A stretch of 63,666 bases of DNA, the filler included. It is 7 parts of 7 records of this genome, joined end to end, with 100 filler letters (N's around TTAATTAATTAA, not from the genome) between each part and the next. Parts side by side here need not be neighbours in the genome. Positions count along the whole stretch, not along the records: positions 7,136 to 20,229 come from SRR2962707_2874; 6 more parts are not named here. One strand, written 5' to 3'. The first letter of the stretch is position 1. Every line of letters starts with the position of its first letter. Below, in pieces: positions 1,704 to 35,075 of the stretch. Under the pieces are notes generated by a model. It saw only the letters and a program-made list of their open reading frames with translations. It was not told the DNA's origin and ran no database searches. Both the position numbers and the translations under genes were made by a program.

Positions 1704-2822
1704 ATGAAAATCGGTTGCCCAAAAGAGATCAAGCCACAGGAATTTCGCGTCGGCATGACGCCGAATGCCGCATTCGAGGCCGTGAATAACGGTCACGAGG
1801 TTATCATCGAAACTGGCGCAGGCGTTGGCGCAGGTTTTGAAGATACCGATTACATCGAGGCAGGTGCCAAAATCATCGCCACTGCCGCCGAGATTTTCGC
1901 GGCCGCAGACATGATCGTCAAAGTCAAAGAACCCCAAGCGGTCGAACGTAAGATGCTGCGCGAAGGGCAAATCCTGTTCACCTATCTGCACCTTGCCCCC
2001 GACGCAGAACAAACCAAAGACCTGTTGGCCTCTGGTGCGACCTGCATTGCCTATGAAACCGTAACCGACCGCAGCGGCGGCCTGCCTTTGCTTGCCCCCA
2101 TGTCCGAAGTTGCGGGCCGTCTGGCCCCCCAAGTTGGCGCGTGGACCTTGCAAAAGGCAAACGGCGGACGCGGCGTGTTGATGGGCGGCGTTCCCGGCGT
2201 TGGCCCTGCGCGGGTTGTTGTGATCGGCGGCGGCGTTGTGGGTACACATGCAGCGCGGATTGCGGCAGGTATGGGTGCGGATGTCACCGTGCTTGACCGG
2301 TCCCTGCCCCGCTTGCGCTATCTTGACGATGTTTATGGCGGCACGTTCAAGACGTCTTATGCGTCTGCGGGCAATACCATTGAACTGGCCCGCGCCGCCG
2401 ACATGATTATCGGTGCCGTGCTGATCCCCGGTGCAGCCGCGCCCAAATTGATCAGCCGCGCCCAGTTGTCCGAGCTAAAGCCCGGCGCCGTGTTGGTTGA
2501 CGTGGCCATTGACCAAGGGGGTTGCTTTGAAACCTCCAAGGCCACCACACACCAAGACCCGATTTATGAGGTCGACGGCATCATGCATTACTGCGTTGCC
2601 AACATGCCGGGTGCGGTTGCACGCACATCCACGATCGCACTTGGCAATGCGACGATGCCGTTCATGCTGGCACTGGCCAACAAGGGCTGGAAGAAAGCCT
2701 GCGCAGACGATGCGCACCTTAAGGCCGGGCTGAACGTTCACGCGGGTCAATTGACCTATGCGGCCGTCGCCGAAGCGCTTGGCCTTGAAAGCATCACCGC
2801 CGACCAAGCCATTGCCCGCTGA
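1704..2822 (+). CDS. ald: Alanine dehydrogenase
   Basis: MKIGCPKEIK...EFRVG, FTYLHLA, PMSEVAGR, GGGVVG, DVAIDQGGC, YCVANMPGAV. Confidence 0.97.
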   Translation: MKIGCPKEIKPQEFRVGMTPNAAFEAVNNGHEVIIETGAGVGAGFEDTDYIEAGAKIIATAAEIFAAADMIVKVKEPQAVERKMLREGQILFTYLHLAPDAEQTKDLLASGATCIAYETVTDRSGGLPLLAPMSEVAGRLAPQVGAWTLQKANGGRGVLMGGVPGVGPARVVVIGGGVVGTHAARIAAGMGADVTVLDRSLPRLRYLDDVYGGTFKTSYASAGNTIELARAADMIIGAVLIPGAAAPKLISRAQLSELKPGAVLVDVAIDQGGCFETSKATTHQDPIYEVDGIMHYCVANMPGAVARTSTIALGNATMPFMLALANKGWKKACADDAHLKAGLNVHAGQLTYAAVAEALGLESITADQAIAR

Positions 2823-2840
2823 TCAACGACGATGAATGCA

Positions 2841-2870
2841 AAAGGCCCGCAGGTGACTGCGGGCCTTTCT
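2841..2870. terminator. Bidirectional terminator between convergent ald and mscL
   Basis: 12-bp inverted repeat AAAGGCCCGCAG / CTGCGGGCCTTT. Confidence 0.8.
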
Positions 2871-2892
2871 CGTTCCGACAAACGGAAACGAA

Positions 2893-3324
2893 TTACTTCT
2901 TGGCGAGCGAGTCGCGGATTTGCAAAAGAACGTCCAGCTCGGATGGGCCGGTTTCGACTTCTGGTGCGACTTCTTGTGGGCCTTCGGCTGCGGCTTTCAT
3001 CTTGTTGACAGCCTTAACCAGCATGAACACAACAAATGCGATGATCAGGAAGTTGATGCAGGCAGTGATGAACGCGCCGTAAGCAAAGATCGCAGCGCCA
3101 GTTTCGCGTGCGGCGTCAAGGCCGATACCCGCTGGTACATCGCCGGACAGAACAGCGTAAAGGCTGGTAAAGTCAGCGCCGCCCAAAACCAGGCCGATGA
3201 TCGGGTTGATCAGATCGCTGACCAGCGAGCTAACGATCGCAGTGAACGCAGCACCGATGATGATACCGACGGCCAGATCCATAACATTGCCCTTGGCAAT
3301 GAAGTCCTTGAATTCTTGAAGCAT
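2893..3324 (-). CDS. mscL: Large-conductance mechanosensitive channel
   Basis: [43 protein letters not shown]; start set at MLQEF. Confidence 0.96.
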
Positions 3325-3950: not shown

Positions 3951-6350
3951 TTAACCGCGCAGAACGCCGCCTGTGGCTTTGGTTACTTTCTCGACCACCT
4001 TGGCCCCGACAGCTTCGATATCGGCATCTTTCAAGGTTTGCTCAACCGGTTGCATCCGCACAGTCAACGCGAGCGATTTTTTGCCCTCGCCCAAAGCACC
4101 GCCGATGAATTCATCGAATACACGCACGTCATCAATCAGCGCCTTATCCGCGCCCATCGCGGCGTTCACCAATGTCATCGCATCGATATCGGCATCCACC
4201 ACAAAGGCGAAATCGCGCTCAACGGCTTGCAATGCGCTGGTTTTCAGCGCCGGTCGCGTCGCGCCAACTTTGCGTGGCAACGGCACCTCGGCTGGCCAGA
4301 TGGTAAAGCCCATTGCCGGGCCTTTCACATCCAATGCGGCCAGCACGCGGGGGTGAATTTCACCAAACACACCCAGCACCTTTTTTGGCCCAAGGCAGAT
4401 TTGTCCGTGACGCCCCGGATGCCACCATTCGGCGCCGTTGCGGTTGATCTGCACCTTGGCAGGCGCGCCGATGGCGGACAGTACCGCTTCGATATCGGCC
4501 TTCACGTCGAACAGATCGACGGGCCGGGATGCGCCATGCACATCCTTTGGACCTGTGCGCCCGATCAACACGCCGCTGACCTGCAAGTGCTGTTCACCGG
4601 GTTCGCCGCCGGTGAACACCGGACCTACCTCGAACAGGGCCATGTCAGGGAAACCGCGTGCCTGATTGCGCGCAACGGCTTGCAACAACGCGGGCAGCAA
4701 GGCCGGGCGCATGTGGCTCATGTCATTGCTGATCGGGTTCTCAAGACGGGTCTCGTCGGTTCCCCCACCAAACAGCGCGGCAGAGGGCTGATCGATAAAG
4801 CTGTATGACACGCATTCGTTATACCCCAACGCAGCACAGGCACGGCGCGCGGCGGCCTCGCGGCGCTGCGCCGGTGACAGGATCGGTTTGGGAATACCTG
4901 TCGTCAGACGCGGCAAGGGGCGTCCTTCGAGTTTGGTGAGCGATGCAATGCGTGCGACTTCTTCGACCAAATCAGCCTCGCCCTGCACATCGGGGCGCCA
5001 GCTGGGGACATGGGCCATGTTCCCCTCAAGACGGAAGCCAAGCGACGTCAATGTCTTGCGTTGGTCTGCCTCGGAAATGGTCATGCCCACAAGCGACTGC
5101 ACCCGCGCGGCATCCAACTTATACGCCCGCGAGAAATCAGGCACCTTGCCAGCAACCACAACTTCGGACGCTTCGCCGCCTGCATTATCAAGGATCATCC
5201 GCGTGGCATGTTCGATCGCGTAAGGCGTCCATTCAGGGTCGATACCGCGTTCAAAACGATACCGTGCATCCGAATTGATCTTGAGCGCGCGGCCCGTATA
5301 GGCGGTGCGCACCGGATCGAAATAAGCCGCTTCGACAAAGACATTCACAGTATCCATGGAACAGCCGGTCTCGGCTCCGCCCATAACGCCCGCGATGCTT
5401 TCGACCTTTTCAGCGTCAGAAATCAGCGTCATGCCTTCGGTAAATGTGTATTCCTTGTCATCCAGACCCAACAAAGTCTCGCCGCCCTTGGCACGATGAA
5501 CGCGCAGCGTGTTACCCGCGATTTTATCGGCGTCAAAGACGTGCAAAGGCCGGTTGCGGTCATAGGTGAAAAAGTTGGTCACATCGACAAGGAACGAAAT
5601 CGGGCGCAACCCGATGGCGCGCAACGCGTCTTGCAGCCACACAGGCGACGGGCCGTTCTTAACGCCACGGATCACGCGACCGTAAAAGACGGGGCATTGG
5701 TCCAACGTATCTTCGTCGATGGACACTGTGACCGGGCAGGGAAATGTCCCCTCGACAGCGGGGATGTCACGTTTTTTCAGCGTACCCAAACCACGGGCCG
5801 CCAGATCACGTGCAATGCCGCGCACGCCCAATGCATCGGGGCGGTTCGGGGTAATGGCGATCTCGATCACCGGATCGACCTTGGCGGGGTCATTTTCGGC
5901 AAGCCAGTCGATGAAACGATCCCCGACATTGCCCGATGGAAGTTCGATAATGCCGTCATGCTCTTCGGACAGTTCCAGCTCGCGCTCGGACGCCATCATG
6001 CCAAAGCTTTCGATGCCACGGATTTTGCCAACACCAATCGTTGTATCAATACCCGGCACATAGACGCCCGGCTTGGCCACAACCACGGTGATGCCTTCGC
6101 GGGCGTTGGGGGCACCGCAAATGATCTGCTGAACACCCTCGTCGGTTTCAACCTGACACACACGCAGACGGTCTGCATCGGGATGCTTTTCCGCAGACTT
6201 CACATAGCCCAAGGTAAAATCCGCCAGTTTGGCACCGCGATCTTCGACGCCTTCAACCTCGAGGCCCAGATCGGTCAGCGCATAGGTGATTTCATCAACC
6301 GACGCCGTGGTGTCGAGATGATCCTTTAGCCAAGAGAGTGTGAATTTCAT
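3951..6350 (-). CDS. pheT: Phenylalanine-tRNA ligase beta subunit
   Basis: MKFTLSWLK, KHPDADRL, CGAPN, ITPNRPD, RFERG, DLVEEVAR, C-terminal FDX-ACB domain. Confidence 0.98.
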   Translation of the reverse strand: MKFTLSWLKDHLDTTASVDEITYALTDLGLEVEGVEDRGAKLADFTLGYVKSAEKHPDADRLRVCQVETDEGVQQIICGAPNAREGITVVVAKPGVYVPGIDTTIGVGKIRGIESFGMMASERELELSEEHDGIIELPSGNVGDRFIDWLAENDPAKVDPVIEIAITPNRPDALGVRGIARDLAARGLGTLKKRDIPAVEGTFPCPVTVSIDEDTLDQCPVFYGRVIRGVKNGPSPVWLQDALRAIGLRPISFLVDVTNFFTYDRNRPLHVFDADKIAGNTLRVHRAKGGETLLGLDDKEYTFTEGMTLISDAEKVESIAGVMGGAETGCSMDTVNVFVEAAYFDPVRTAYTGRALKINSDARYRFERGIDPEWTPYAIEHATRMILDNAGGEASEVVVAGKVPDFSRAYKLDAARVQSLVGMTISEADQRKTLTSLGFRLEGNMAHVPSWRPDVQGEADLVEEVARIASLTKLEGRPLPRLTTGIPKPILSPAQRREAAARRACAALGYNECVSYSFIDQPSAALFGGGTDETRLENPISNDMSHMRPALLPALLQAVARNQARGFPDMALFEVGPVFTGGEPGEQHLQVSGVLIGRTGPKDVHGASRPVDLFDVKADIEAVLSAIGAPAKVQINRNGAEWWHPGRHGQICLGPKKVLGVFGEIHPRVLAALDVKGPAMGFTIWPAEVPLPRKVGATRPALKTSALQAVERDFAFVVDADIDAMTLVNAAMGADKALIDDVRVFDEFIGGALGEGKKSLALTVRMQPVEQTLKDADIEAVGAKVVEKVTKATGGVLRG

Positions 6351-7035: not shown

Positions 7036-7135
7036 NNNNNNNNNNNNNNNNNNNNNNNNNNNNNNNNNNNNNNNNNNNNTTAATTAATTAANNNNNNNNN
7101 NNNNNNNNNNNNNNNNNNNNNNNNNNNNNNNNNNN
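7036..7135. other. Artificial contig linker
   Basis: N44-TTAATTAATTAA-N44, giving stops in all six frames. Confidence 0.99.
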
Positions 7136-7200
7136 CTCACTCACTCACTCACTCGCTCATCACTCGTTCACTCGTTGACTCGCTCGCTGACTCAACTCAA
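7136..7200. repeat. (CTCA)n-like low-complexity microsatellite at the eukaryotic contig start
   Basis: ctcactcactcactcactcgctcatcactcgttcactc. Confidence 0.8.
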
Positions 7201-8978: not shown

Positions 8979-9392
8979 TCAGTTGTCTGCAAACCGCACG
9001 AACGGCTGGTTCGAGCGCAGGTGTTGCTGCAGGTCGATCGTCACGACCTTCACGGACCCGGTCCTTGCGCGCAGCATAGCATCAGTTGCGCGCACGACTA
9101 CTACCTCGTACCTCCCAATGATACCGGGTTCCTGCGCCCGGGCAATCTTCTCGCACTGAAGCAGTTCGTTGACGGAAATTTGAAACGCAATGCGGTTTGG
9201 GGTGAGCTTCTTCACCTCGATGAAGCGCCGCAGCACGTTCTCAGCTTGGTGGATTTCCACAAAGATGTCGTACGGCAGCCCTTGCTCTGCTTCTGCGTTG
9301 CACCATTTCACCGTACTGTTCTTTGGCAGGCAAGCCTTCAGATGTTCGCTCACCAGGTACTCTGCTTGCAGTGCTGCTTGGCGAACAGACAG
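8979..9392 (-). other. DUF3883/NOV-C domain (PD-(D/E)xK-like), last exon of the NOV-like gene
   Basis: AEYLV...W.N...EQGLPYDI...RFIEVK...FQISVNEL. Confidence 0.75.
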
Positions 9393-12300
9393 CTGGACAC
9401 AACGCACGACCAATACAACAGTACAGTTTGTTCAGCTGTGTGTGTATGCGAGTTTGGCAAAAGCAGCGTAAGCTCAGCAGCACACACAAACCTTCTGCGA
9501 GAATGCACCGACACTGACATCTTCTGGGAAAAGTGCTGCTGGGCGGGACACCAGAGCTCTGTTATCCTCTTCGACTAAGACCGTGGACTTGTGCGTCTGC
9601 ATTTGCACGCGGGTCAACCGGGGTTGCCCAGGATCTGCGCCGGCGTCGGTGAAAATGGCGCGCTCTGGGATCAACCCGCTGCTGTCGCGCTCCCCAGCTG
9701 ACGGTTCGGGCATGTCAGATTTCTGCCCGCTGTCGCCTCCCGCGTTATGCGTCGTCCCACCCGCCCCTTCTCCGTTCACTTGTTCCTGGCCTTCGTCGCC
9801 GCGTGTGCGGTTGGTCGCGTGCTCGATTCCAAAGCTGATGATTCGCGGTGCGGCCAACGGGTTCGCCGGTCCGCTTCCACCGCCCGTTTTGGCAAGCCAG
9901 GAAATGTCTGGCTGCAACTCACGTGATAGGTCTTTGTTCTCTGCAAGCTCGCGCTCCAAAAGCTGGCGACGCTCGTTCTGCAGTTTTCTTTTGGCCCGCA
10001 CATTCTTAAAAAACTCCCCGTCGTCCTCGACATCGTCGGTGCGAATCGTCAGCGTGGGGCCGCCCAGGCGAGCACTGCGCATTAAATCGGCTGCAGGGAG
10101 CGGTGCATCTGTCACAAGCTCCTCGGCGCGCCCTGGGATGCTCTCGGCCATTGTTAGTGCCTCACTTGCGCCACTGCGCTTGTGGAAGCGCGGCGGTAGG
10201 AACCAGAGGTGTCCGTCACTCCCGTGCAGCACTGCCCACGGATTCGAGTCTTCAAGCAACTTGCTCTGCAGCACACCCAGCAGTTTGTGCATGACTGCCG
10301 TATTCTTCACGCTGCTGGGGAGCACGGCGTTCAACATGGCCTCCAGCACCGGTGCCAACTGAAGCCTGTTGTCGGCGTTGCCAAGTTCGCCATCGCACAT
10401 GCCTTCCAACATGCTTCGGGCCACATAAACAACAGGACGGGCATCGACTAAAGTCGAGAATGCCAGAAGCATTGTTGGCGATGACTCCAGTGCTGCCTTC
10501 GCTCCCGCAGGGTGCACCTTGTAGACCTGCCGAATGCTGTCGCAGAGCTGCACTTTTAAACACCGTAATCGCGTGATTGTCGGAAAAATGCGACCCGACC
10601 CATGCTCGGAGTTCTCCCCACGGTCGTTGTTTGAAGGCTGGGAAGTTGTGTCGGCCTCTGTCCGAATGCTTTGCAGTACATCGTGCTCTACGCCCTTGCT
10701 CAGCCGGTGTTGCAGTGCTACTTTGAAGAGGTCCATGAGCTCTTCCAGCTGCGGCATACCTGCATCCTCTCGTTGGGTTGCGGAGTCGCCATCCTCTCGC
10801 GGGTCCTGCACGGGCTCGGTAACGTCTTCCCAGGATGGTTCTTCAGTGATGAAACGTACCTCGAGCAGGTCAAAATGCTTTGACAGGCATGGGTGCAAGA
10901 AAAGTACTTCTTGCACCAACGAGAACCGCTCACAAATGGCTCTGCCAACAACGTCTTCGGGGCCGGCAAAACCATACACCCACTGAGATTGCTGGGATGC
11001 CGTAGCCAACTTCACAAAGGTGCCACGGGTGGTGGGCAGGAAAAGGTCATGCACTTCGCTCTGCTGCATGGCCAGGGCAACGGTTTTGCCGCGGAACCTC
11101 GTTGTGGAATCGCCGCTGGATGCATGCTTGTCTGGCTGCCCCGCGGAAATGACTTGTCCCAGAGCAACATCCAAGAGTTTGCAATAGCACTTGAAGTTAT
11201 GCACTCCTTTTTCACGATCAGGAAGTGCGAAGTCCGCGTACTTGAAGTGTGGGTTGCTCTTCGGGCGCCCCGGGAGCTGCGCAAACATCTGCATGTCCAG
11301 GGCGACGGCGTCCAAGCACTGCTTCTGGGCACCAGCGGGCGGACTCTTCGGCACCCCGAGGAAATACACAAAGAAATTCAGAACTGGGTCAAGGGGTGAG
11401 CGACCGTACACCCTCGACAACGTGAACCGAGGGATGGCCGCGGTAGCCATTGCGGCACTGCTCAGGCGGCAGTCCCCAAAGATGCGAAGCAGCCCTGACG
11501 GGTCGCTTAGCACGCAGTCATTAATGCGCTCGAACCGACCTTTGATCACCTGCTCAGGATATATCTCGCCTTCGCGGGCTGCGGGCACCCATACCCTTGG
11601 AGGCAGGCGGTGCGTCGTTGGGTCCTCCTTGCAAAAGAAGTTGTAGAGATGCCAAGCCTGTTTCGAATCGTGTGACATTGTTTCAGCAAATTCCGCAAAT
11701 CGCTTCATGACTGCCCGCATGTGGGATCCGGAGGTGTTAAACGACGTGAGTCGTGAGTTGCGCGCCCATTCACCCACAAGGTCCATGAGAATCTTGGTGT
11801 CGATGTTCTGTGTTACGTTCAGCAGCTGCGCCATGGTGTCATCGCACTTGATATCTGGGTGCGTGTATCTACATTGCATGCCGCGCACAGCCGGGTGGAC
11901 GTTGCTTGGTGAGTGGGGTTTCTTCACATGATTGCTCTTGGCATCATGAACGAAAGGTAATTTGCGTAAAACAAATTTGTGCATGGAAACGTACCGAACA
12001 AACGCAACTTGTCTGCCTGCGTGCGTCGAGACCGCGGTCAGCTTTTGCACTTCTTGAGAATGCTTGTCAAATAGGGACGCCGGCCGGCACAGCGGGAGCA
12101 GCGCGTGGTCACCCTCGCGCCCTTCTGCTGGTCCGCGCCGCAAGTCCTGGGCGGGAAGCCAGTACATGTGACGAAGCTGCTGCACCGCCAGAGATGGAAT
12201 GGCTTTTGACAATGACTGCGCGCGAGCGCCGCTGATCTTCATCAAAGCTTTACCAGATTGCGGCTGGATAGTACAGTTTGCGTGTTGAGCCAGGTTGCTT

Positions 12301-15300
12301 TGCTCAAATAGATGCTGCAAGGCGGGATACAACTGCTTTGAGATGAAGTCAAAGACGCTCCGCTCCACATACACCGCATCGTCAAACTCGCACAACTCTG
12401 GTATAAAGAAAGCCGGGCCCTGACGACGATTCTCCTGCAGCAACGGCTGCGTCCCACTGCCGTCCTCACCCTCCTCTTGCAATGCGCCCACGCCGTAGCA
12501 GGTCTGGTAGTACTCAAGCAGTGACTGCTCAGACCCGGTCTTCGTCTTCAGCATCTCCGTACGGGGTGATTTGTCAAACGCCACGTCGGCCACTAGCACC
12601 ACTGGACGTGTTGCGTCATGCAATGGCACAACAATCCGCCCGCGCAATTCCTGCTGCAGCACCATGTCCCAAGCAGGGTACCCTGTTTCGGCCAGTCGCT
12701 GGGTGGGAAGCCGGCGAACGCGCTGCATCCAGTCCCAGACGTTCTCTTTCGGCAGCGGCTTCCATGGCTTTGGTCCCATCGGGTCCGGTGACAACACCAA
12801 GTACTGTGCCGAGGATTTCCCGACTGTGACCACCCGTCGCCGTCTCCACGCACGCTGCAGAGCCGTCGCGGCTGGGGCGGTTTCGAGATGCGGGGCACAT
12901 GCCTGCCCCACGATGTTGATCAGCAGTTTAAAGAGCTCGTTGCCTCGGAACTCCCATTGCTTCCACAGCTTGTATCCCACGGGAGGAGAACTGCACAAGT
13001 CGGGCCAGTGGCACTCCTCCACGGCAGTCAGCAGCGCGTATGGTCCAGGTACCTGCGACGTTGAGCAGGCAGGGTAGTGCGATCATCGTTGCTTCCTTTG
13101 GTATCATTCACGTCAGGGTCACACGTACTATCAAACGCACCTGTGCCGACACCAAGGTTTCGTCAGCGCACTCTAACTCGAAGGTGTGAGCGACACCAAA
13201 CTTTTTCAGCAAGTTTGCCGCCTGATGGGTGCCCAAAAAGTCGCGGTGGACGGTCATCCACTCAAAGTTAAGGTTCGAGTCTGCAACAGTCAACCATGAA
13301 AGTGTTACCGATGCAGGCGATTGTCTCATTCGCAGGCACCACGGTGGCAAAAAATCGCGCACGTGAACGCACTCGAACTTTCTGACCACCACAACACATT
13401 GGCGTCGAAATGAAAGCCCCGAGGTGGTTGAGCCTTTTGCGTTTTTTTACGATTTGCTGCAACGAAAACACACGATGCAGACGGAAAACTCAACCACAAT
13501 GCACACGCATGCCCGTGCACTCACGTTGCGGCCTGCACCAACTGGGGTCACAGCGCAGCACCGCTTTTGGACAAACACGTCGCACGCACTAACCTGGACC
13601 GGGGAAATGCAGGACGAGCTCAGCTCCGTGGGAGAGCGGAAACAGCTTTCTGTCATGTGTCGTGACGACAGGACCGTCACCCACAGCAAAAGCTTTGTCG
13701 ATGCTACGCTTCACGCACTTGTCGGTACAGTAGTGCCGACTCACAAACTCAAAGCAGTCTGTCAAAAGGACATGCGCGTTTTTCTGTGGCACCTTTCCTT
13801 TGTCAGCCCGTATGCTCCGATACAATGGCAAAATCATACTCTCGACGACATGCCCAGCTGTCAAGTTCCGAATTTTGAGCTTTTTCGTCAATACGTCCAT
13901 GTATGCCTGCGCCAGTCAGACAACGACACTTCAAATCAGGCACACGTTTGCCATTCATGGCATGACTGGCATTGACTCAGCAACCAGACGCACAGCATTT
14001 TCGTCCCGGTGCAGATCTGGGACGCTGGCATCAACAAGTAAGAGCGACTTGGCAAAGCGGAAACCCCGCAAGCTGTGTGCCAGCCCGGCGCTGGAGGGAT
14101 GAGTAGGAGCCATCGAGGATGCTGATGTGCGGAACAAATTTGAGCTCGCTGGTTCAGCAAAGACAAGCTTGCCCTCGAATCCCGTTGCAGGCAGCCAGGC
14201 CAGCTTGCGCAGGCTTTCATACTTTTCTTTTGCCATCGCCAAAGTTGTGGTGCCGGCCCCGACCATGTCGCAATAAAGAAGCACCATCCTCACGTACCAC
14301 GCGCGCGGTTGGTTGCCCCGCCTCACCGCAACGCCAAGAACTGCCAGCACATGCGCGTCACCAATGCACTCAATGTCCAGCTCACTGAGCACCTGCGGTC
14401 GCACCTCCGACTCAAACGTCGGATCTAGCACGCGTTTCTTGCAGGCCTCCACGATGTCACCCGGACTCATGAGGGCAATGACACGATCGTAGAAATCCGG
14501 GGGAACGCGAAGCGTAGCAGCGGGAACCTCGAACTCAGCTGCACGTTGTTCACCGTCAGGTGGTGGCCACGATGCGGTCAGCACACCACATACAGCCTCT
14601 GTCTGGAGAGAGTGCAGCACTTCGCGCGCAATAGGCTTGAGCATGTCGATCACGTCGGGCACCATCGGGACCATGGAGACAAACTGCGCCATCGAAACGC
14701 CACATTTCCCCGTGCTAATAACACGATGCGCTTGGCAGAACAACCGTGGGACGCGAGAAAGTAGCCACACGTTCCAATCGTCTCTGTCCATGATATCTTC
14801 GCGAGTGGCGTTGGTCACCCAGTCCGCTTGCAGAACAAACCGAAGGCCGCACTTCTTCACGGGCAAAAACGCAAACAAAAACTGCTGCTGGGAGCTGGCG
14901 CCGCCTCGATGCGCATTGTGACCAGCATTCGATTCAAGGCATGGAAAAGCGAGCACCAGCGATGTATTGTTGACGTGGTGGCCAATTCGCATAAGCGTCG
15001 GCGATAATTTTTGCTCCACGACCAGCCAATGCTTGTCACGCACGGTAGTACTAACAGAACCGCCAGGGCCATCGGGCAGCGGCTTGGACACGTGCGCAGT
15101 GGTGCGCATCTTGTACCACACAACATCGTTGTCTGCCGACAGTTCCACAGGCGTGCATTGTTGTGACTTCGTCAAACGCTTCACCTCACCGGTGACTTGG
15201 TTGTCCAAAATCACTGTTTGTAACGTGCGCAAGAAAAGCATTGAGTCGTCGATGCCCATGAGCTGTTGATACATTTGCCGATAGCGTTTCTTCACGTCTA

Positions 15301-18300
15301 ATTTCAGCGGAAGGACGATGGAGGTTCCAAAGTCGGTGGCGCAGAATTCCGGTGGCAGCCTGGCAACCTGGTCGTTATACTCCCCGCGCTCTTGCGGGTG
15401 CAACCACGTGGGAATTATCATCCCAAGCGGAGTCATTGAGACGTCGAATGCAATGTGATACCCATTGCTATGAACTTGCGCACGGTTACTGATGCAGAAA
15501 ACCGATTTGAATCCGATTCCTTTCTGCCCGACCTGCCCCACAGACACATTCATCAGGCGAGAACTAACAATTATTAACAGAGAATGAACAGCATTATGAC
15601 TGGTGGCATTTAACTCGCACAGTGGAAAGCGCACCTTTCCCTCTAAGCCAAGTTTTTCACTATCAGAAATGGAGCACACGTTGACAATGTCTTCATCCGA
15701 AAACCCGCGTTCATTGCAATGGGCAACAAGCACGTCAGGCGTCATTTGAAAGTACAGAGTTGGCTCTGTCCCCGCGGCCTTCAGGGCAGCGCAGTCGTAT
15801 GCACAGTCGTTGCTGTTTTGGATCATTTCAAACACGAAGTGAGCTGACTCGGCGTAGAGTTCGGTGGACACTTTTGGGAGTAAACCCTGCAAAATGCGGT
15901 CTTTGTGAGCTCCATCCTGGGTCGTCGGACGGATCGGGCCGTCGTAGTCCACATCGTACTTGCGGCGGATCTCCGCAACAAGCCGTTGCTGACGTGAAGT
16001 GTCTGTGGAAGCAACCTCGTCTACCACTGCGGCGTTCCCAGCATGCGACCCACTCGCATCTAGCTCCCCAATGTCTGCGTCTTGTATCAGTGCGGTGCCC
16101 AGGTGCCTTTCACTGGTCTCAGCAGGGTGTGATGCGTCGCCCTGCAACAACCCATCGCTGTCAAGGGAGAGGGACAACTCATTGGCCGTACTGAACCCAC
16201 CGTTGACGGGGCCCCATGAGGCAGTGAGCTTCAAGACAAGCGCTGAAGCTTCTCGGTGCGTGTCCTCCCAGCTCGCGCTTGTGCGCAGCGCTCGGGTCAC
16301 GTCGACATCGGCCCACAAATCGCGCTTCAGAACATGGCCCAGGGTCCTCAACATGCATAGCGGGTGCACCTTCGTCGACAGGTTCGGTAGAGCCAGGCAC
16401 CCCGCAAAGGACGCAGGGACGTGAAGCGCGGCTCGTAGCAACACTCGCTCCGCACTCACGGAGTCCGGACCTGTGCAAAAGTCGTCGTCGAAGACGGACG
16501 TCCCTGATGCTAACTGGTGCTGCTCCGCAATGACCAAACATTGCTTATTGAGTACATCTATGAGCGCACGAGCGTTCACAAGACGCAGGACAGGTGGGAG
16601 TGCGGCCAAAACATCGACAATGAGCGCTGCGGCGCATTCCAGTTCCGCGTGGACCCCAAACTTGGCCATATTGCCTCGGTGCTCACGAAAATTGTACATT
16701 GTGTAAGGGCCAGTGTAACGTGTGACCAGTGCTCGCCCACAGGCGAGTATTGCATCTTTGCGCGACTGCGCGAAGGCCGCGATACCTCGGTAAAGCGTGT
16801 TCGCCAGACTCACAGAGCCTTTGCCTGCGAGAGAGGGCGGCTCTAACGCCTGGTGCTGTATCGCTGCAAGCTCGATGAGCCCGGCGGAAGTCCGGCCGTT
16901 GCCAGCCTGAAGTGCATTGCAAAGCTTTCCGCACAGTTCCTTGTCAGTCTTTATGGTACCCGTGACGCATTTCTGGTGACCATGGCACACGTCCAGAATG
17001 CTGTCGCCTTGGCGGAGCCCTGGTTCAGCGATGAAGCCAGAACTGGTGAGATCTGCGGGTGTGCTGACTTCGGCAAGCTCATGAAGCGCCTGACAGTCTT
17101 GTGCAATGCGCCCGTGGGGACGATCACCACACTCCTGCGCAAGCAACCGCACAATTGACTCGCAGCGGGAATTCGAATTTGCCCGTGCGTCTCCATCCTC
17201 CTGTTCGCAGGCCATGTAGGCGGTTAACCAGGGCTTGTCAATAGCTCCCATTCCAAATTGCATCCAGAGCACTGGAAGCAGTTGGTCGACATCAACAGTG
17301 TCGCAGGCGCTTCGACCGCGAAGCAATTGACGCTTGCACGCCTGGATGGTACACTCTGCATGCAAGCATAGATGTGACATAGCACAGCAGGAATGATGAG
17401 CAAAGATTGTGCGCGATATCTGCTGGGCTCGATACAAGTCAGCCTCGTGCTCAGCATCACAAACTCACCGAGCTCAGTTGCGTCAATGTGAACACCCTGT
17501 TCCGCCATCACTTGACACAGTTGGTGCATGTGTGCGGCTCGCTTGGTCTTACCACAGCAGTCGGCCTTCGCGCTGTTCGCAATTAGAGGAATGGTCAACT
17601 GCGCAGCATGCATCGCTTTTGACAATTCCGCCGCCCCGCCTGAAGCCTCGCCTGCCGCCTGGCGCAAAAACTGCAAAAAGGATATGCCGCCCCACTGTTC
17701 GAAATGGACCACGCCAGCAAAGTCCGTGCACGCCGCTTCGAGCGAGATAAGCAAATCCAGTGGACTGTCGGAAAGCAAACGCCAGACTGAGTACTGTATC
17801 ACCAGTGGCAAGAGAAACCTTGCGCAACCAAGCTCGGCTCGGTGCGACGTAAACGCGCCGACGGATTGACGCATACACGGACCTTTCAGCTGTGTCTGCG
17901 AGCAGCTCGCATTCTCCAATAACTTTGTAGCACATGTCCTCTTGCGTAATGGTGCCGCTGGGAGTTGCTGGGGCCGGGCTAGTTGCCTCCAGAGACTGAT
18001 GTGCTGAGCTTTCGCCGCGGGCAGCTGTGTTCCTGATCAATGCGTTGAGCTCGTCCGCACAGTGCTCGGCCACGAATCGGTAGAACGGCAGTCGCTCAAC
18101 AGTGAGATCTTCAAAAAAGTCGACATCACTGTTCTGCGCCGCCTGGACTTCGACGTTGCGCAGGAGTTCAACTACGTCGACCCAGCGCGTTACTTGACCC
18201 CCAGCCTCCGCAACGGCAGCCGACAACAGCTTTTTGCAAGCTGATGAGAGTTCATTTGCAGTTGGTGCCGGTTGCTTCAGCTGCTTTACAAACACCTCAC

Positions 18301-20019
18301 GGTTCGTACCTCGGAGAAGCTCCATGGTCAATGCAGCCATCACTTTCACATTCTGCACTCGTTTGGCAGTGGGCAGCTTCGGGCCGGCAAAGGCGTCAGC
18401 AACTAGTAGCGAACATTGCATGCAAACTCAAGATCAGGACCTGAAAAGCTGTAAGTGTAAACTCAAAGAATCTTGGCGGAGGGTGCTTATGGTCATACCT
18501 GCTTGGGAGCTGACGCTGGCTTTTGCGGCGTCGATGATGGCTGCAGCAGCAGTCTTTTGGACGCTCAAAGATGGTTTGTTTGCCTCAAGTAGAACTTTCG
18601 CGAGTTTGCGGCGCTGCTGTTGGACGATGCGCTCCATCTCCTTTGTGACGCAGGATCCAACGTCATCTTCCAACGCTTTCAAGCCGCGCTGGCTTTTCGT
18701 CCGCGATGCCACGACGCCGTGGTACCAGCCGAGGAAGTTGACCACAACAGGAACTTTCTCCGCGGCCACGAAGCCCCGCTCCGTCGCGAGGTAGGCCCAG
18801 AACTTCTCATTCACTCGTTCACGCAGGCGCTGAAGCTCGGCAGGTCGGTTTGGGGGCGCACGCCTGAATAGGGCAGTCTTTTTCTTCCAGTGTTCGCTGT
18901 AGAATGTCACCATGAGCTTTTTGATGTCCAAAGAAGTGATGCGCGGGTACCCGCGGTCCTTGTACGGAGATAGCACTGCTGTGCCGGCAGAAGCTGAGAC
19001 AACGGCGGGCCCTTCAGGTGGCGCAACACTTGCTTTTGCTCCACCGGTTGCTGGCTGTCCTTTGGGGACAGCGACAGCCGCCGCAACCGGCGGGGGCTTG
19101 GCCACCCGGTCTCGAGGTTTCAGTACCTTGGGGGCAGGGCCCGCACGGCTTCTCAGCGAAGGGGTGCCTTTGGACCAGCTGCCTTTCGTAGCAACAGCGC
19201 TGGAACTCGGAGCTGGGGCACCAAGCGCGGGAAATCCAGCAAGGGCTGGAAAGTCGGCATCAACAGTATCCCGCGCAGCACCGCCTCCTCCTCCTGCTGC
19301 TTCTCCTGTGCCAGTACTCGAAGCAGCACTCGTTGGTTGCGGCCCTGCGCCTTGGCCCTCGGCCTTCTGTGCGTGGAAGAATTGAACGACGGCTGGGAAC
19401 ATCCTGTGCTTCAGCAGCACGGAGTGCAAGAAGGAACCCAAATTCAGTTCGCCAAACGAGTCCACACCGCAGATGCAACAGACGCGGTCGTGGAGGTCTT
19501 GCGGCGTGATGATATCCGCCGTCTGCATGATAACCGCGACCATGTTGTCGAGCCTCTGTACGTCTTGCTGCAAGGCGGTGTACCTGAAGAGAAAGAACGG
19601 TGCAACAAGCAGGCAATTCAATCCAGGCGCAACACCAGCAAAAGGCAAGCAGCCCACATCGTCAACGGCAGGAGTCGGAGGAGCCAACCGGCACACACGC
19701 ACTCTGGGAAGTCGTGCACTCCCACCACCTCGACGGCCCGCTTGTTCTTGCTGGTGGTGGTGTGGTCGATTTGAATCCGTGCAACAAGCTGGCGCTCATT
19801 CTCACAGCCGAAGTGGTCCAACACCGCCAGCAACACGTTCTCGACGGTCACACTGTCGTTCCCTTTGCGATGCAGCTGGAGGCGGGCGTTCCGCAGGGCC
19901 GATGCCACCTTGCCCGGTGCGATGTCGCGCCCAAAGTTGGCGCTCGGCTGCAAGAACGCCTTCTTCTTGCCGCCGCGGGATCCTTTGCCCCTACTACCAG
20001 AATGCCGAGACGACGGCAT
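8979..20019 (-). CDS. Multi-exon NO VEIN (NOV)/sacsin-like protein of over 3000 aa: NOV N-terminal block, GHKL ATPase, PAZ-like insert, C-terminal DUF3883/NOV-C domain
   Basis: Chain of minus-strand ORFs joined by GT-AG introns, e.g. 19584-19702, 15533-15634, 11869-11994, 9393-9491; other junctions not fully resolved. Motifs: IITPQDL...GVDSFGELNLGSFL; ELYAESAHFVFEMIQNSND...NERGFS...GQKGIGFKSVF; FLFAFLPV...FVLQADW...RE...WNVWL; WCNAEAEQGLPYDI...FIEVK...FQISVNE. Confidence 0.82.
12380..12655 (-). other. PAZ-like domain within the NOV-like protein
   Basis: RGRIVVPLH...VADVAFDKSP...SLLEYYQTCYG...QPLL...FFIPELC matches the ordered Dicer/Piwi PAZ motifs. Confidence 0.72.
15400..15875 (-). other. 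GHKL (Hsp90/sacsin-like) ATPase core of the NOV-like protein
   Basis: Bergerat-fold motifs EMIQNSND, NERGF and GQKGIGFKSVF, split by a 102-nt in-frame intron. Confidence 0.88.
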
Positions 20020-20202
20020 CGTTGAGGCGCTTCAGAACGGCGGCGACAAGATGATGAGAACGACTTGTGTGTTGCTTCCTCGCGTAGTCAAGCCCGGAAA
20101 TAGACAAAATTTCGGGCCGCACAAACGACAAACGAAAAACCACACCAACAAATCTCACCACCACGACCCGCCACCTCCAGACAGTCCCCCCCCTCTCTCA
20201 GC

Positions 20203-20229
20203 CCACCACCACCACCACCACCACCACCA
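20203..20229. repeat. (CCA)n microsatellite at the contig end
   Basis: About 9 CCA units directly before the linker. Confidence 0.9.
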
Positions 20230-20329
20230 NNNNNNNNNNNNNNNNNNNNNNNNNNNNNNNNNNNNNNNNNNNNTTAATTAATTAANNNNNNNNNNNNNNN
20301 NNNNNNNNNNNNNNNNNNNNNNNNNNNNN
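20230..20329. other. Artificial contig linker
   Basis: N44-TTAATTAATTAA-N44. Confidence 0.99.
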
Positions 20330-26063: not shown

Positions 26064-26163
26064 NNNNNNNNNNNNNNNNNNNNNNNNNNNNNNNNNNNNN
26101 NNNNNNNTTAATTAATTAANNNNNNNNNNNNNNNNNNNNNNNNNNNNNNNNNNNNNNNNNNNN
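26064..26163. other. Artificial contig linker
   Basis: N44-TTAATTAATTAA-N44. Confidence 0.99.
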
Positions 26164-27786
26164 CAAGCGAGACAAGAAGCCAGATGATTTTTCATCGAAT
26201 GCGCCAGCCATCGCCTGCGTTCTCTCATCCAAACGAGACAGGAATTCAGAAGATTGGCTTTCCGCCGACGTGTTCACAGTGTTCAGCTTTGCCGTAAAAT
26301 CAGCAGCGCGGGCCTGAAGTTCCTCAGAAAGGGACGTGGTGACCGCAGAGGCTTTAGACATAAATTCTTCGCTGAAGGTTTTTGTCGTTTCAGCCATTGT
26401 GTTTGCCATATCGCGGGTGCGCTCAAGCAATGTCTCGCTGAGTTTACGCGAACGGGCATCAAGCGCTGAATCCAAACGCTCGGTGCCATCATTGACGGCG
26501 TCAACACGGTTTTGGAATTCAGACAGCAAGGATGAACCGCGCTCATTGAGCACTGTTTCCATGCTCGCCATGCGCGTATCAAATTCAGACGTAAGTTTGG
26601 CTGTCGCCGTCCCAAGAACCGACACAATAGAGTCAGAACGTGATTCAAGCGCTATCGCGAGTTGATCGCTTGCAGAGTCAGTTTCTGATTGCAATTTGGA
26701 AATGCGGTTATCGAGCATGTTGGCAAACTCGTCGCCCGATGCCTTCAAATTACCGGACACTTCTTGAATGCGCTCAGCAATCGTCTGGTTGATCTCTCCG
26801 CCGCTCTCATTGATGCGGTTGACCAATTGGTTGCCGGAGTCCGAAAGAGACATGGTCAGTTGGTTCGATGCGCTGATAACATTCTCGCGAATTTGATCCG
26901 CAGCACCTGTGATTTCATAGCGCAACTCTTCATGCGCGCCGGAAATTGAGGCGCGTAAACGTTCGGCATGGGTCACGATGCCTTCGCGCTCATTGCCAAG
27001 GTCTGATAGAAGTGAGCGAACACGCACTTCATTGTCAGAATAAGCACGCTCAAGTTCGTTGACTTCGCCCTGCATCAAAACTTCAAGTTCTGTCGCGCGG
27101 GCAATTGTGCGCTCAATGCCTTCGCCCATCGATGCAACTTCGCGGCGGATGGCTTGCCCAACGGTTGCAATCTGATCGGTTGCCATATTTTCTGGCGCGA
27201 CCAAGCGGAATGCAATTTCGCTCATTGAGTTTGCTGTCATGCGCATTTCTTGTGCACGGCGCAGCATGGTCGAGAACGCGAAAAACATAAATATTGGGAC
27301 AATCGTACCCACCAAGATGGCAAGCGCCCCTGGAATAGCCTGCAATTGCGCAAAGCTGCGCACTTGCCAAACATCGGGCGCATAAAGCGTATGGGCAAGG
27401 AACAAGCCACCGACGAGCCAAAGGGCGCTAACAATAAAGGTGACGACATGCGGCGAATTAGATGGGCGCGCATTAAGGCGTGAAAGCATTTGGGCATATT
27501 CGCGCTGTGAATTATCATCATTAGCCGCGCGGAATGGATTTGCGGCCGCAGCAGGCGCAGCCTTTTTTTCTGCTGGAGCAGGGGCTTTGTTTTCTACCGG
27601 CGCCGCAGCTTTAGGTGCTTCTGGCTCTTTCAAGGTTTTCGCAGCGCTTGCAACCTGTTCTTCAAAGTCGTCGAGAGACAACTCTGTATCCAAGTCCATA
27701 TCATCACTGAAATCTGAATCCAGAGCGTCTTGCAGCGCCTTTTCCATATCCAGTTCAAAATCTGGTGCGTTTTTCTTAACAGCCAT
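26164..27786 (-). CDS. Large membrane-anchored apolipoprotein-like helical protein (GPR/RgsE-like polar growth protein), 3'-truncated
   Basis: Acidic N-terminus, AANDD, two TM helices, then GQAIRREVASMGEGIERTIARATELE...LERAYSDNEVR and helical repeats; divergent from Hpt-fdx. Confidence 0.65.
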
Positions 27787-28099
27787 GTCGCCTCACCTAA
27801 ACCTTATCGGTTTGTATGCTTATTTTAATTTTTGCCGATATCGCCATGAGCCTAAAAAAAGGCACAATTGGGGTATCAGCACATCCGCGCCATCGTACCG
27901 GTATGCGTCGTCTAAATAAACAACGGATTCGCGAAATGGTTAAAAGTTTAAATATAAAGTTAACGCGCACCGGATTTGGAACGGTTTTTCATCTTAGCAT
28001 CATTTAATCCGCAATCTTGTCTGCGTTAACTTTGCGCACAGACATTTGCGTAAGAATACTGGGCTAAGGATCGTTTTAAACGGGCGCAAGAGAGTGATT

Positions 28100-28483
28100 A
28101 TGGGACAAGCAGTTAAAATCAATGGCCATCCGGTCTTTTCATCGCCGGTAAGTGCCGGTGACCTCGTTCGACAACACCGCCCAATTGATTTGGTGCATTT
28201 GGCTCAACAAACCGGTGGAAATCGTGCCCTTGAAGAAGAAGTGCTGCAGATGTTCCTGCGCCAGTCCGCTTCTTTGGCTCGGCAATTCCCTAGAATGGCT
28301 GATGCAGAAGCAGTTAAACAGGCAGCTCACTCTATTAAGGGCGCAGCGCGCTCTGTTGGTGCGCTCGAAGTTGCCAATTGCGCTGACAAATTAGAAGAAT
28401 ATCCGTCTGAAAAAAAGAATGTTGCGGCTCTCATCGCTGAAATCGATGTAACTTGTGATTATATCGCTTCACTGCTGCGCTGA
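28100..28483 (+). CDS. Hpt domain protein
   Basis: PIDLVHLAQQTGGNRALEEEVLQMF...AHSIKGAARSVGA. Confidence 0.88.
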   Translation: MGQAVKINGHPVFSSPVSAGDLVRQHRPIDLVHLAQQTGGNRALEEEVLQMFLRQSASLARQFPRMADAEAVKQAAHSIKGAARSVGALEVANCADKLEEYPSEKKNVAALIAEIDVTCDYIASLLR

Positions 28484-28565
28484 CTTGACAATTTTTGGTC
28501 AATGTCTAATCCGAAGACTTGGATATTTAAGCGCAGAATTGCGCGTTGTATAATTTGGAGTGACT

Positions 28566-28886
28566 ATGCCCAAGCTTACCATCGTAGCCTTTGATGGCAC
28601 ACGTTTTGACCTAGATGTGGCCGATGGCTCAACAGTCATGGAAAATGCGGTTAAAAATTCAGTGCCCGGCATTGAGGCAGAGTGTGGCGGCGCATGTGCA
28701 TGCGCCACTTGCCATGTTTATGTTGACGAGGCTTGGACTGAAAAAGTTGGTTCTCCTGATGTTATGGAAGAAGACATGTTGGATTTCGCCTATGAGCAAA
28801 AGCCAACATCACGCCTTTCTTGCCAAGTGACGATGTCAGGCGAACTCGATGGCCTTGTTGTTCACGTTCCAGAACGTCAAGCCTAA
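28566..28886 (+). CDS. 2Fe-2S ferredoxin (adrenodoxin type)
   Basis: [27 protein letters not shown]. Confidence 0.95.
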
Positions 28887-28903
28887 CTTATCAGGAGGCG
28901 CTC

Positions 28904-29767
28904 ATGGTTGCGCCGATAAATTCACCTTTTCTGCCACGGATTTGGCGTCTTGCTCATGGCAGGACGCTTGAGCTTGGCCCTAAAGGTCTATTGATGGGTG
29001 TGTTGAATATCACCCCCGATAGTTTTTCTGATGGTGGCAATTACAATACACCTGAAAAAGCTGCTGCGCAGGCGCTAACCCTTTGCGAGGAGGGTGCGAC
29101 CATCATCGATTTGGGCGCGGAAAGCACGAAGCCGAACGCCGATGCTGTCAGTGCAGACGAAGAACAGCAACGCCTCATGCCTGCAATCGCTAGCGTTCTA
29201 GCGGCAGATGAAAACATTATCATTTCTGTTGATACCTACCGTGCTTCAACCGCTGAATTGGCGCTTAAGGCCGGTGCACATATCGTCAATGATGTTTGGG
29301 GATTGCAGCGCGAGCCCGATATCGCGCGCATTGCCGCTGATCATGGCGCTGGCCTTGTGATTATGCACACAAATCGCGGCCGCGAAGCGCTTGATGATGT
29401 GATTGAAGACCAGAAGATGATTTTCGGCAAATCGTTGGAGATTGCTGCAAAGGCCGGCGTTAACGAAGATCAGATTATGCTTGATCCAGGTTTTGGCTTT
29501 GGAAAGGAAACTGTTGAGATCAATATGGCGCTCATGGCGCGTTTTGATGAGCTGCTTTCGCTTGGCTATCCGTGGTTGATCGGCACCAGCCGCAAACGCT
29601 TTTTAGGCGGTATTACGGGCCGCGAAGCGGCTGACCGCGACGTTGCGACGGCAAGCACAACGACACTTTTGCGCAAAAGCGGCGCTGCCGTTTTCCGTGT
29701 TCATAATGTCGCTGTGAATGCGGATGCATTATTGGTCTGCGATGCTATGATACAGGCTCAAGCATAA
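28904..29767 (+). CDS. folP: Dihydropteroate synthase
   Basis: MGVLNITPDSFSDGG, GAESTKP, DPGFGFGK, GTSRKRF, RVHNV; AGGAGG RBS before ATG at 28904. Confidence 0.96.
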   Translation: MVAPINSPFLPRIWRLAHGRTLELGPKGLLMGVLNITPDSFSDGGNYNTPEKAAAQALTLCEEGATIIDLGAESTKPNADAVSADEEQQRLMPAIASVLAADENIIISVDTYRASTAELALKAGAHIVNDVWGLQREPDIARIAADHGAGLVIMHTNRGREALDDVIEDQKMIFGKSLEIAAKAGVNEDQIMLDPGFGFGKETVEINMALMARFDELLSLGYPWLIGTSRKRFLGGITGREAADRDVATASTTTLLRKSGAAVFRVHNVAVNADALLVCDAMIQAQA

Positions 29768-29790
29768 ACGCTAATTCGAGGGTGAGGCGA

Positions 29791-30153
29791 ATGATCTACG
29801 AAATTCGAATGAAAAATTGCGCATTTTTTGCGCGACATGGCGTTTATGATCAGGAAGAGTTTCTCGGCCAGCGGTTTTATGTAGATGCCGTGCTGACTGT
29901 GGAAGCAGGCACAGCGCTCGACAATGATGATCTTGAAGGCACTGTTGATTATGGCCGTGCATTCCAAGAAATTGAAAAAATTATCACGGGCGAGCGGCGC
30001 TATTTAATCGAAGCGCTTGCCTTGGAAATTGGACGCGCGCTTTGCGATGAATTTCCGCAGATCGTTGAGGCCGATATCACAGTGCGCAAACCAAATGCGC
30101 CTGTGCCGGGTGTGTTAGACTATGTTGAGGTTCGTGTTGTCCATAAAGCCTGA
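29791..30153 (+). CDS. folB: Dihydroneopterin aldolase
   Basis: FARHGVYDQE...GQRFYVD, TVDYG, LIEALA, VRKPNAP. Confidence 0.95.
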   Translation: MIYEIRMKNCAFFARHGVYDQEEFLGQRFYVDAVLTVEAGTALDNDDLEGTVDYGRAFQEIEKIITGERRYLIEALALEIGRALCDEFPQIVEADITVRKPNAPVPGVLDYVEVRVVHKA

Positions 30154-30157
30154 CAAT

Positions 30158-31184: not shown

Positions 31185-31293
31185 AAGTGATCTTCCCAAC
31201 CGTAAACGGATTCATAACTACCCAATCATGAACGAGATTGGTTAATGCATTCTTGTAATGGAAATAAATTGCGGCAGGAAGACGTATAATCGG

Positions 31294-33809: not shown

Positions 33810-33838
33810 AATTCATTCCTAATTGCTGATATCGCCTT

Positions 33839-33868
33839 ATATAGGCACGCAAAAGCAATGTTTCAAAG
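33839..33868 (-). promoter_or_regulatory. Putative RpoH (sigma32) promoter of ycjXF
   Basis: Minus strand CTTTGAAA-N15-CCTATAT about 30 nt upstream of ycjX; ycjXF are known heat-shock regulon members. Confidence 0.55.
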
Positions 33869-33881
33869 CTCGGTTGATGAT

Positions 33882-34388: not shown

Positions 34389-34576
34389 TTTGGGCTCCTT
34401 AAACACTTGTCTGGAATAGTTAGCGCTTTGTTGCGACAACTTCAATGCTTATGCCAATCGCAAGTGTCTGTTTTCGATACAGCTTGTTGATTTAAGTTAT
34501 TAATCAATATTTCGTCTTGCTGCAGGCGGCCCGCGCGATTATACACCGCTCATCAGATGTTTTGTGGAGTTATCTA

Positions 34577-34996: not shown

Positions 34997-35075
34997 TTCG
35001 GGCCTTCTGCTTTCTTAGTAATTATTAATGATGTCTTTGCAGCTTGCGTTCAAATGAACGTAAGCTGTTTTTGTT

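Follow-up and report, generated by a model that had tools for sequence, protein, structure and literature searches.

A PAZ domain between the ATPase and the nuclease of a NO VEIN/Tiamat-family protein

Introduction

What is a PAZ domain doing in the middle of an ATPase-nuclease of the NO VEIN (NOV) type? PAZ is a highly function-specific domain, devoted to 3'-end capture, and to our knowledge it is almost confined to Argonaute/Piwi proteins and Dicer. The question is raised by a gene on the minus strand of a 63,666-nucleotide stretch of DNA, filler letters included (hereafter the window), where it runs from 20019 down to 8979. A sequence-only reading of the window had described this locus as one spliced gene joining a NOV N-terminal block, a GHKL ATPase, a PAZ segment and a DUF3883-like C-terminus, and had proposed an RNA-sensing or RNA-guided effector as its product. 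Profiles and motifs agree with the description. The observation is thus confirmed and its interpretation partly supported: NOV-PAZ is a real, rare new domain architecture within the known NOV/Tiamat family.

Members of this family occur in organisms ranging from bacteria to plants and fishes, and its standing as a deeply conserved ATPase-DNase of immune type came to light only lately. It is the subject of two preprints of 1 October 2026. According to the first, the Tiamat protein of B. cereus is an ATPase that cleaves single-stranded DNA (ssDNA) and nicks double-stranded DNA, while single-stranded RNA (ssRNA) is not detectably cut (10.64898/2026.09.30.754977). The same source places TPR-like, "Fold B" and metalloprotease-like folds of the Tiamat central region at the substrate-binding position of GHL proteins, favours protein recognition for the TPR-like folds, mentions that some PD-(D/E)xK nucleases cut RNA, and reports an N-terminal LOTUS domain in 316 of 918 eukaryotic Tiamat homologues; fusions are depicted there only when they occur in at least three eukaryotic proteins (10.64898/2026.09.30.754977). 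In the second preprint NOV shares the Tiamat architecture, and knock-down of NOV in N. benthamiana alters virus responses (10.64898/2026.09.30.755639).

The combination with PAZ had been put forward as new to described proteins, which holds as far as our literature search and the main texts of the two preprints reach. A full-text search returned no paper pairing "PAZ domain" with NO VEIN, Tiamat, sacsin or NOV_C, nor PAZ with DUF3883, and "PAZ" is absent from both main texts (10.64898/2026.09.30.754977 and 10.64898/2026.09.30.755639), where a rare PAZ fusion may sit in the supplementary domain tables.

The PAZ domain

The domain lies at 12366-12674 on the minus strand, which corresponds to residues 2090-2192 of the gene model and to residues 137-239 of the long open frame that contains it. 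The segment matches Pfam PF02170 with an E-value of 1.3e-7 and 32.1 bits against a gathering cut-off of 28.8, over profile positions 15-108 of 123, so the PAZ claim survives the profile check, as does the nuclease claim discussed below. All of the PAZ motifs quoted in the sequence-only reading can be placed: GRIVVPLH at 12641-12618, DVAFDKSP at 12587-12564, LLEYYQTCYG at 12521-12492, QPLL(Q) from 12449 and FFIPELC at 12410-12390. With the single sequence as query, phmmer finds eight PDB entries at E <= 10. Piwi-like 1, as PAZ domain or full-length protein, accounts for the first five (E 1.2e-4 to 3.9e-3), all aligned across the whole domain; two more are Piwi-like 2 and one is unrelated. The best match is the Piwi-like 1 PAZ 2xfm_A (E 1.2e-4, chain residues 25-125). 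In a language-model search the ten best named clusters are all PAZ-bearing, with scores from 0.94 to 0.89.

A second copy comes from another organism. When the PAZ and 400 residues of context were scanned with HMMER against 1.84 billion cluster representatives, only the gene's own frame and one further protein (P0005) were found, each a singleton cluster. P0005 is 41-45% identical to this gene and matches PF02170 slightly better than it does (E 3.1e-8, 34.1 bits against the same cut-off of 28.8, profile positions 14-112 of 123). Its contig L001, 1914 bp long, is also the only match in a metagenome scan, and may be cDNA or genomic. There a single frame, 213-1913, holds an upstream NOV module, the PAZ and a downstream module. 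A CTG/CTC low-complexity run opens L001, and its closing sequence translates as SYTHLTLPT, which we take to be Nextera adapter read-through; both ends are probably artefactual. None of 2868 candidates scored in a further search (lengths 102-335 aa, E <= 10) that used the alignment of the two PAZ sequences. The finding rests on these two sequences and on sequence-profile evidence.

Does the domain keep the means to bind an end? The His, Y-x4-Y and hydrophobic-P-E-L-C positions line up with the PAZ of Miwi. Conserved between the two copies are the His, QPLLQ, the P-x-L-C strand and, from the Y-x4-Y motif, its second and last Tyr. We take these pocket positions to be equivalent to residues of hAgo1. 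In that protein 3'-end binding involves H269, Y309, Y314 and positions neighbouring Y336 (PMC5896489).

The remainder of an Argonaute or Dicer is not found beside this domain. In nine minus-strand frames scanned, Piwi, ArgoN, ArgoL1/L2 and ArgoMid give no match at E <= 1, and neither do RNase III, Dicer platform, helicase or dsRBD profiles; the sequence-only reading had likewise seen no PIWI or RNase III motif.

An insertion in the central region

The PAZ sits in what appears from sequence comparison to be a lineage-specific stretch at 12210-13185 (minus strand; model residues 1948-2245, 297 residues). The profile of NOV C-terminal halves stops at position 693, residue 1948, and resumes at position 787, residue 2245, leaving 297 residues against 94 profile positions, or about 200 extra. 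On either side the protein returns to type: the flanks of the insert resemble W-x-S-EEL-x-x-LL and SFLKLLRDLKW of one canonical repeat module (the local match is weak), and the PAZ shares exon 13052-11995 with the canonical NOV module that follows. That module, at 11301-12209 on the minus strand (model 2245-2505), matches profile positions 787-996 with an independent E-value (i-E) of 8.7e-12.

A database search with the ATPase region yielded 171 long proteins at E <= 1e-3, and the homologue counts given here and below refer to the best 120 of these 171. PF02170 is found in 0/120. Because the protein has 297 residues in place of 94 positions and the listed homologues lack PF02170, the alignment evidence indicates that this lineage acquired the PAZ by insertion into the central repeat region. 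An alternative, that it is a generic "beta-sheet motif" or the "Fold B" of NOV, was ruled out on the same two grounds, canonical proteins having only 94 profile positions here and none of the 120 listed a PF02170 match.

Other additions do occur among the same 120: OST-HTH/LOTUS in 26, a reverse-transcriptase domain in two and an RRM in one. PF00078 is found in two plant NOV gene models and PF00076 (RRM) in one JGI protein (P0051, P0056, P0085). The reverse-transcriptase domains probably stem from inserted retroelements or from the fusion of gene models; the RRM of the JGI protein is another RNA-module fusion in the NOV family.

A full NOV-type protein

On the evidence of its profile matches, the gene encodes a full NOV-type protein and not just a Tiamat-like core, since both the N-terminal and the C-terminal NOV profiles match. 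A profile of 35 NOV N-terminal halves matches the model with a full E-value of 1.4e-18 in collinear segments (positions 94-215, 251-547 and 1014-1034), and the separate unspliced frames match it in the same order. These conserved blocks lie at 17653-19944 on the minus strand (model residues 26-168 and 365-678).

Next, at 13186-15880 (minus strand; model 1218-1948), come a sacsin/Tiamat-type GHL ATPase, its transducer and the first central repeats. Against a profile of 45 NOV C-terminal halves the model scores a full E-value of 5.5e-131, the ATPase part covering positions 19-693 with an i-E of 4.1e-110, and the PADLOC TmtA profile matches even the unspliced ATPase frame with E 1.9e-50. The motifs quoted in the sequence-only reading fall where they should, EMIQNSND at 15829-15806, NERGF at 15715-15701 and GQKGIGFKSVF at 15529-15497; FEMIQNSND, NERGF and GQKGIGFKSVF align with the family consensus HFvLELvQNADD, NNErGF and IGqKGIGFKSVF, and the catalytic residues E1235 and N1239 lie within FEMIQN.

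At the other end of the protein is the NOV_C nuclease of the PD-(D/E)xK type, at 9147-9373 on the minus strand, with E3114, D3145, E3162 and K3164. Pfam PF13020 (NOV_C) matches over 8979-9431 with E 1.1e-9 and 38.7 bits against a cut-off of 22.1, and TmtA C-terminal positions 1412-1503 of 1538 match the last exon with E 2.7e-9. The quoted motifs (L)PYDI(F) and FIEVK lie at 9278-9261 and 9224-9210. The four catalytic residues fall in conserved nuclease columns of the alignment, and the GE, PYD and EVK columns are common to this protein and 11 of 13 aligned NOV homologues, the other two being without the domain in the cut used. As judged from these alignments, the ATPase and nuclease motifs are intact.

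The homologues, many of them named "protein NO VEIN", come from fishes, plants, oomycetes, cnidarians, molluscs and protist transcriptomes, and are 24-32% identical to this protein in the ATPase region. In a tree of that region (121 sequences, 675 columns) the protein sits on a very long branch beside the oomycete NOVs (support 0.87), within a protist-rich clade (support 0.95), a placement that gives a hint of a non-animal, non-plant microbial eukaryote. Because it has spliceosomal-type introns and groups in the ATPase tree with NOVs of oomycetes and other protists, an origin in a protist or other microbial eukaryote is plausible; the sequence-only reading had named a protist outright, which goes further than these data establish.

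Gene model and splicing

The gene model was built by dynamic programming on codon usage and GT-AG signals, after which two in-frame introns were added. It runs on the minus strand from an ATG at 20019-20017 to a stop at 8981-8979 and encodes 3240 residues in 11 exons: 20019-19703, 19583-18499, 18402-17883, 17764-17465, 17309-15635, 15532-13994, 13906-13594, 13280-13141, 13052-11995, 11868-9488 and 9373-8979. The joined frame is open throughout with one terminal stop, and 10/10 introns are GT..AG. Three long minus-strand open frames underlie it, at 9474-13082 (1202 residues from stop to stop, 1182 from a GTG), 13955-17464 (1169 residues) and 18434-19795 (453 residues), with shorter ones between.

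The first of the added introns, 15533-15634 on the minus strand (102 nt, AAG/GTGCGC..GGGCAG/GTC), lies within the ATPase. When it is taken out, two profile matches fuse into one continuous NOV ATPase match; its presence explains why Pfam SACS reaches only 18.5 bits on the unspliced frame. The second, 11869-11994 on the minus strand (126 nt, GTACGT..TGTAG), lies in the long open frame downstream of the PAZ, and its removal makes the NOV consensus match continuous, the profile match becoming positions 787-996. The 1182-residue open exon region of the sequence-only reading therefore exists as a frame, at 9474-13082, although it is not one exon, being interrupted by at least this one intron.

Read support comes from a public run (X1), presumed to be RNA, which contains 13% of the sampled words and whose contigs are 100% identical to the window. 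One of its contigs joins 11868 to 11995, and the skipped segment has the ends CT..AC on the plus strand, that is, GT..AG on the minus strand. X1 contigs over 12469-12661, inside the PAZ, and over 12801-13027 show no joint. Parts of the gene without X1 cover are uninformative. A record from the same run that touches both 19752 and 15617, with 36 foreign letters between them and a depth of 31.5, was set aside as unrelated, its matches being short and taken to be due to chance. For the last intron, an alternative 3' splice (AAG/GTTTGT to ..GCAGAG/TAC) would lose the conserved nuclease Glu; the Glu-retaining model is provisionally preferred.

Surroundings of the gene

The window is made up of seven contigs with six identical linkers, N44-TTAATTAATTAA-N44, between them (7036-7135, 20230-20329, 26064-26163, 40446-40545, 46471-46570 and 58311-58410). 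Since the contigs are separate, neighbouring genes across the linkers provide no genomic context for the NOV-PAZ gene, which takes up nearly all of the second contig (7136-20229, 13,094 bp). This contig begins with a CTCA/CTCG microsatellite (7136-7200) and ends in a CCA repeat (20200-20229), and was probably broken at these simple repeats; because it ends there, the gene may have an extra upstream exon beyond 20229.

The other contigs are of mixed origin. Contig 46571-58310 (41% GC) matches a contig (C6) of a 4.7-Mb prokaryotic genome from end to end at 99% identity, so the assembly mixes bacterial and eukaryotic DNA. The same genome (G001) has no match to the PAZ region nor to contig 26164-40445. 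Contigs 1 and 4 are probably bacterial because of the genes they carry: an alanine dehydrogenase (1704-2822, plus strand) and a PheRS beta chain (3951-6350, minus strand) on the first, and a DUF697 and YcjX pair (31294-33809, minus strand) and a PAS-histidine kinase-receiver hybrid (36029-38653, plus strand) on the fourth, all of bacterial type. Contig 7 is eukaryote-like, and a putative E1-E2 fusion is seen on it: one open frame of 1416 residues (58413-62660, minus strand) encodes a ubiquitin-activating E1 (ThiF twice, SCCH, E1 four-helix bundle) followed by a C-terminal UQ_con E2 (E 8.9e-31).

What the inserted domain may do

Could the PAZ be an end sensor wired into an immune-type nuclease? 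The explanation that we favour, and hold to be probable by a modest measure, is that this is a full-length NOV/Tiamat member whose inserted PAZ acts as a nucleic-acid 3'-end sensor gating the ATPase-nuclease, and not an RNA-guided slicer. The choice of a sensor over a slicer follows from the absence of MID and PIWI: a lone PAZ cannot hold a guide, so the RNA-guided half of the sequence-only proposal is unlikely. The bacterial prototype, which does not detectably cut ssRNA (10.64898/2026.09.30.754977), suggests in turn that any link to RNA would be one of sensing and not of cleavage.

By analogy with Tiamat and other GHL proteins, the protein would form a dimeric clamp, driven by ATP, with the substrate held in the central region. 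There the PAZ would supply a pocket for the free 3' end of RNA or ssDNA. Candidate ligands are small RNAs, 3' overhangs and RNA of viral or transposon origin, and capture of the end would recruit or license the ATPase-gated nuclease. Its role would be in defence, against viruses or mobile elements, or in genome surveillance, analogous to the LOTUS domain added by aquatic animals. By analogy with its relatives, a defence role against viruses or mobile elements is probable. The sequence-only reading had gone no further than to link prokaryotic sacsin-like fusions to defence; that tie stands, and was put too weakly for what is the eukaryotic branch of antiphage Tiamat, as the TmtA match reported above indicates.

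Several observations weigh against this explanation. The arrangement is carried by only two sequences, of which L001 is a 1.9-kb fragment with the ATPase and nuclease outside it. The language-model "recognition" value is 1768, under the level that most known families reach, and a profile made from both copies finds the Piwi PAZ in the PDB with E 0.0024, weaker than the 1.2e-4 of the single sequence. AlphaFold2 on two-sequence alignments gave unusable models, with a mean predicted local distance difference test score of 39.5 (191 aa) and 35.9 (136 aa). The pocket has changed in places: this gene has V where Miwi has its second beta-hairpin Tyr, the last Tyr is preceded by C in this gene and by R in P0005, and P0005 has F for the first Tyr. 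Direct joint support reaches 1/10 introns, 11869-11994, eight others being predictions, and the run that provides it may be DNA; it was counted as weak support only. Of the central region, for which the family has DUF3684/TPR-like, "Fold B" and metalloprotease-like folds, the NOV profile covers the part up to position 693 and positions 787-996, and the 602 residues of model 2505-3107 have no match. The failure of the prototype to cut ssRNA, cited above, belongs on the same side for any reading in which RNA is the substrate.

How do other explanations fare? The altered pocket raises the possibility, doubtful in our judgement, that the domain is a true PAZ by descent that has lost end binding and now serves as a structural spacer or protein-docking module in an otherwise ordinary NOV. 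The substitutions just listed would fit, as would an identity of only 41-45% between the two copies and the preference for protein recognition by TPR-like central folds in the Tiamat preprint (10.64898/2026.09.30.754977). Against it, the positions shared by the two copies and named above, from the His to the P-x-L-C strand, include those that line the pocket in Piwi PAZ domains, and each copy scores above the cut-off of a profile built from RNA-binding PAZ domains. Less probable still is a component of silencing in the manner of Dicer or Argonaute, in which the PAZ would measure or hold small RNAs and the PD-(D/E)xK domain would cleave RNA. The near confinement of PAZ to Argonaute/Piwi and Dicer speaks for it, and so do the RNA-cutting members of the PD-(D/E)xK nucleases (10.64898/2026.09.30.754977) and a prokaryotic precedent for a GHKL ATPase, a nuclease and an Argonaute core in one protein (10.64898/2026.05.29.728809). 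That precedent, however, uses another GHKL family (PF13749) and a complete Argonaute core, while MID, PIWI, RNase III, helicase and dsRBD were not found at E <= 1 in the nine frames; and B. cereus Tiamat cut ssDNA and not, to a detectable degree, ssRNA (10.64898/2026.09.30.754977).

That the architecture is an artefact of the gene model or the assembly, with the PAZ being intronic, part of a separate or nested gene, or brought in by a chimeric contig, is very improbable. The model does come from sequence signals with read support for 1/10 introns, in-frame introns do occur inside long open frames, and the record chains bacterial and eukaryotic contigs. Yet NOV modules flank the PAZ within a 3.6-kb open frame, in canonical order and all on one strand, and L001, an independent contig of another organism, repeats the order of module, PAZ and module in one frame. 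Across the segment, conservation of 41-45% at the protein level argues for coding, and the fully identical X1 contigs run unjoined over 12469-12661 and 12801-13027, yet show the joint at 11869-11994. Chance resemblance of a segment not homologous to PAZ is harder still to credit. Its appeal lies in modest scores (32-34 bits), the want of a confident fold and a PDB phmmer E-value of only 1e-4; it has to contend with two sequences at 41-45% identity that both exceed the gathering score over nearly the same profile range (15-108 and 14-112 of 123), with seven of eight PDB matches, the top seven, being Piwi PAZ domains aligned end to end, and with an independent language-model search whose ten best named clusters are PAZ only.

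A more specific form of the end-sensor explanation, which we think rather unlikely as it stands, is an RNA-licensed NOV/Tiamat clamp. In it the PAZ would capture a 3' end, whether of viral, transposon or small RNA, and so switch on the ATPase and a DNA-cutting nuclease, making the protein an Argonaute-independent, RNA-end-triggered DNase immune effector. If true, it would be the first direct clue that the central region of all NOV, Tiamat and sacsin-type proteins is a nucleic-acid-handling chamber and not a protein-binding one.

Taken with the LOTUS fusions, a PAZ inserted into the putative substrate-binding core suggests that the ligand is a nucleic-acid end or RNA. The insert is in addition a small, expressible domain with which to probe what the central region binds, and it adds to the PAZ-containing architectures known from eukaryotic defence and silencing.

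Comparison with known systems

The closest relatives are NO VEIN itself (A. thaliana AT4G13750) and its animal, oomycete and protist homologues. They share the order of N-terminal blocks, sacsin-type GHL ATPase, central repeats and NOV_C nuclease, and the catalytic E and N of the ATPase and E, D and ExK of the nuclease are conserved in this protein as well. What sets it apart is the PAZ, which lies within the roughly 200 extra central residues only here (0/120 among the homologues listed), the distance from ATPase to C-terminus (about 2020 residues, against 1550-1750 in most homologues), and its great divergence, at the 24-32% ATPase identity given above. Tiamat (TmtA; PADLOC PDLC03964-03972), a single-gene bacterial antiphage system, matches this protein in its ATPase head and nuclease tail profiles, and by analogy the ATPase-plus-DNase chemistry of the B. 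cereus protein is presumably common to both. Unlike TmtA, this gene is eukaryotic and spliced, with a NOV-typical N-terminal extension of about 1200 residues and the PAZ insert. Human sacsin (SACS) has the same type of ATPase repeat, and NOV homologues are assigned to the Pfam model SACS (PF25794), which this gene matches weakly; according to the second preprint, sacsin combines three such repeats with HEPN and J domains and lacks both NOV_C and PAZ (10.64898/2026.09.30.755639).

For the inserted domain itself, the best sequence matches are PAZ domains of the Piwi clade (Miwi 2XFM; Hiwi1 3O7V, 3O3I and 3O6E), with the E-Y-Y-x3-Y helix and the (I/L)-P-E-L-C strand included. Piwi proteins surround their PAZ with N, L1, MID and PIWI, none of which is present around this one in the nine minus-strand frames; some pocket residues differ, and the alignment shows 11 residues here against 20 in Miwi between QP(L/V)L and IPELC, which indicates a shorter loop.

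Two further systems combine such parts in other ways. The prokaryotic SLFN-pAgo proteins, such as RzAgo of Runella zeae, also unite in one polypeptide a GHKL-superfamily ATPase, a nuclease and Argonaute-derived nucleic-acid-binding parts, with a role in defence; RzAgo differs in being prokaryotic and in having a PF13749 GHKL ATPase, a Schlafen nuclease and a complete Argonaute core with MID and PIWI (10.64898/2026.05.29.728809). The likeness is one of functional analogy, not homology. Nearer by descent are the LOTUS/OST-HTH-bearing NOV homologues of fishes and aquatic invertebrates, which have likewise gained an RNA-associated module: in those proteins it is N-terminal and lies outside the Tiamat core, whereas the PAZ described here stands between the ATPase and the nuclease.

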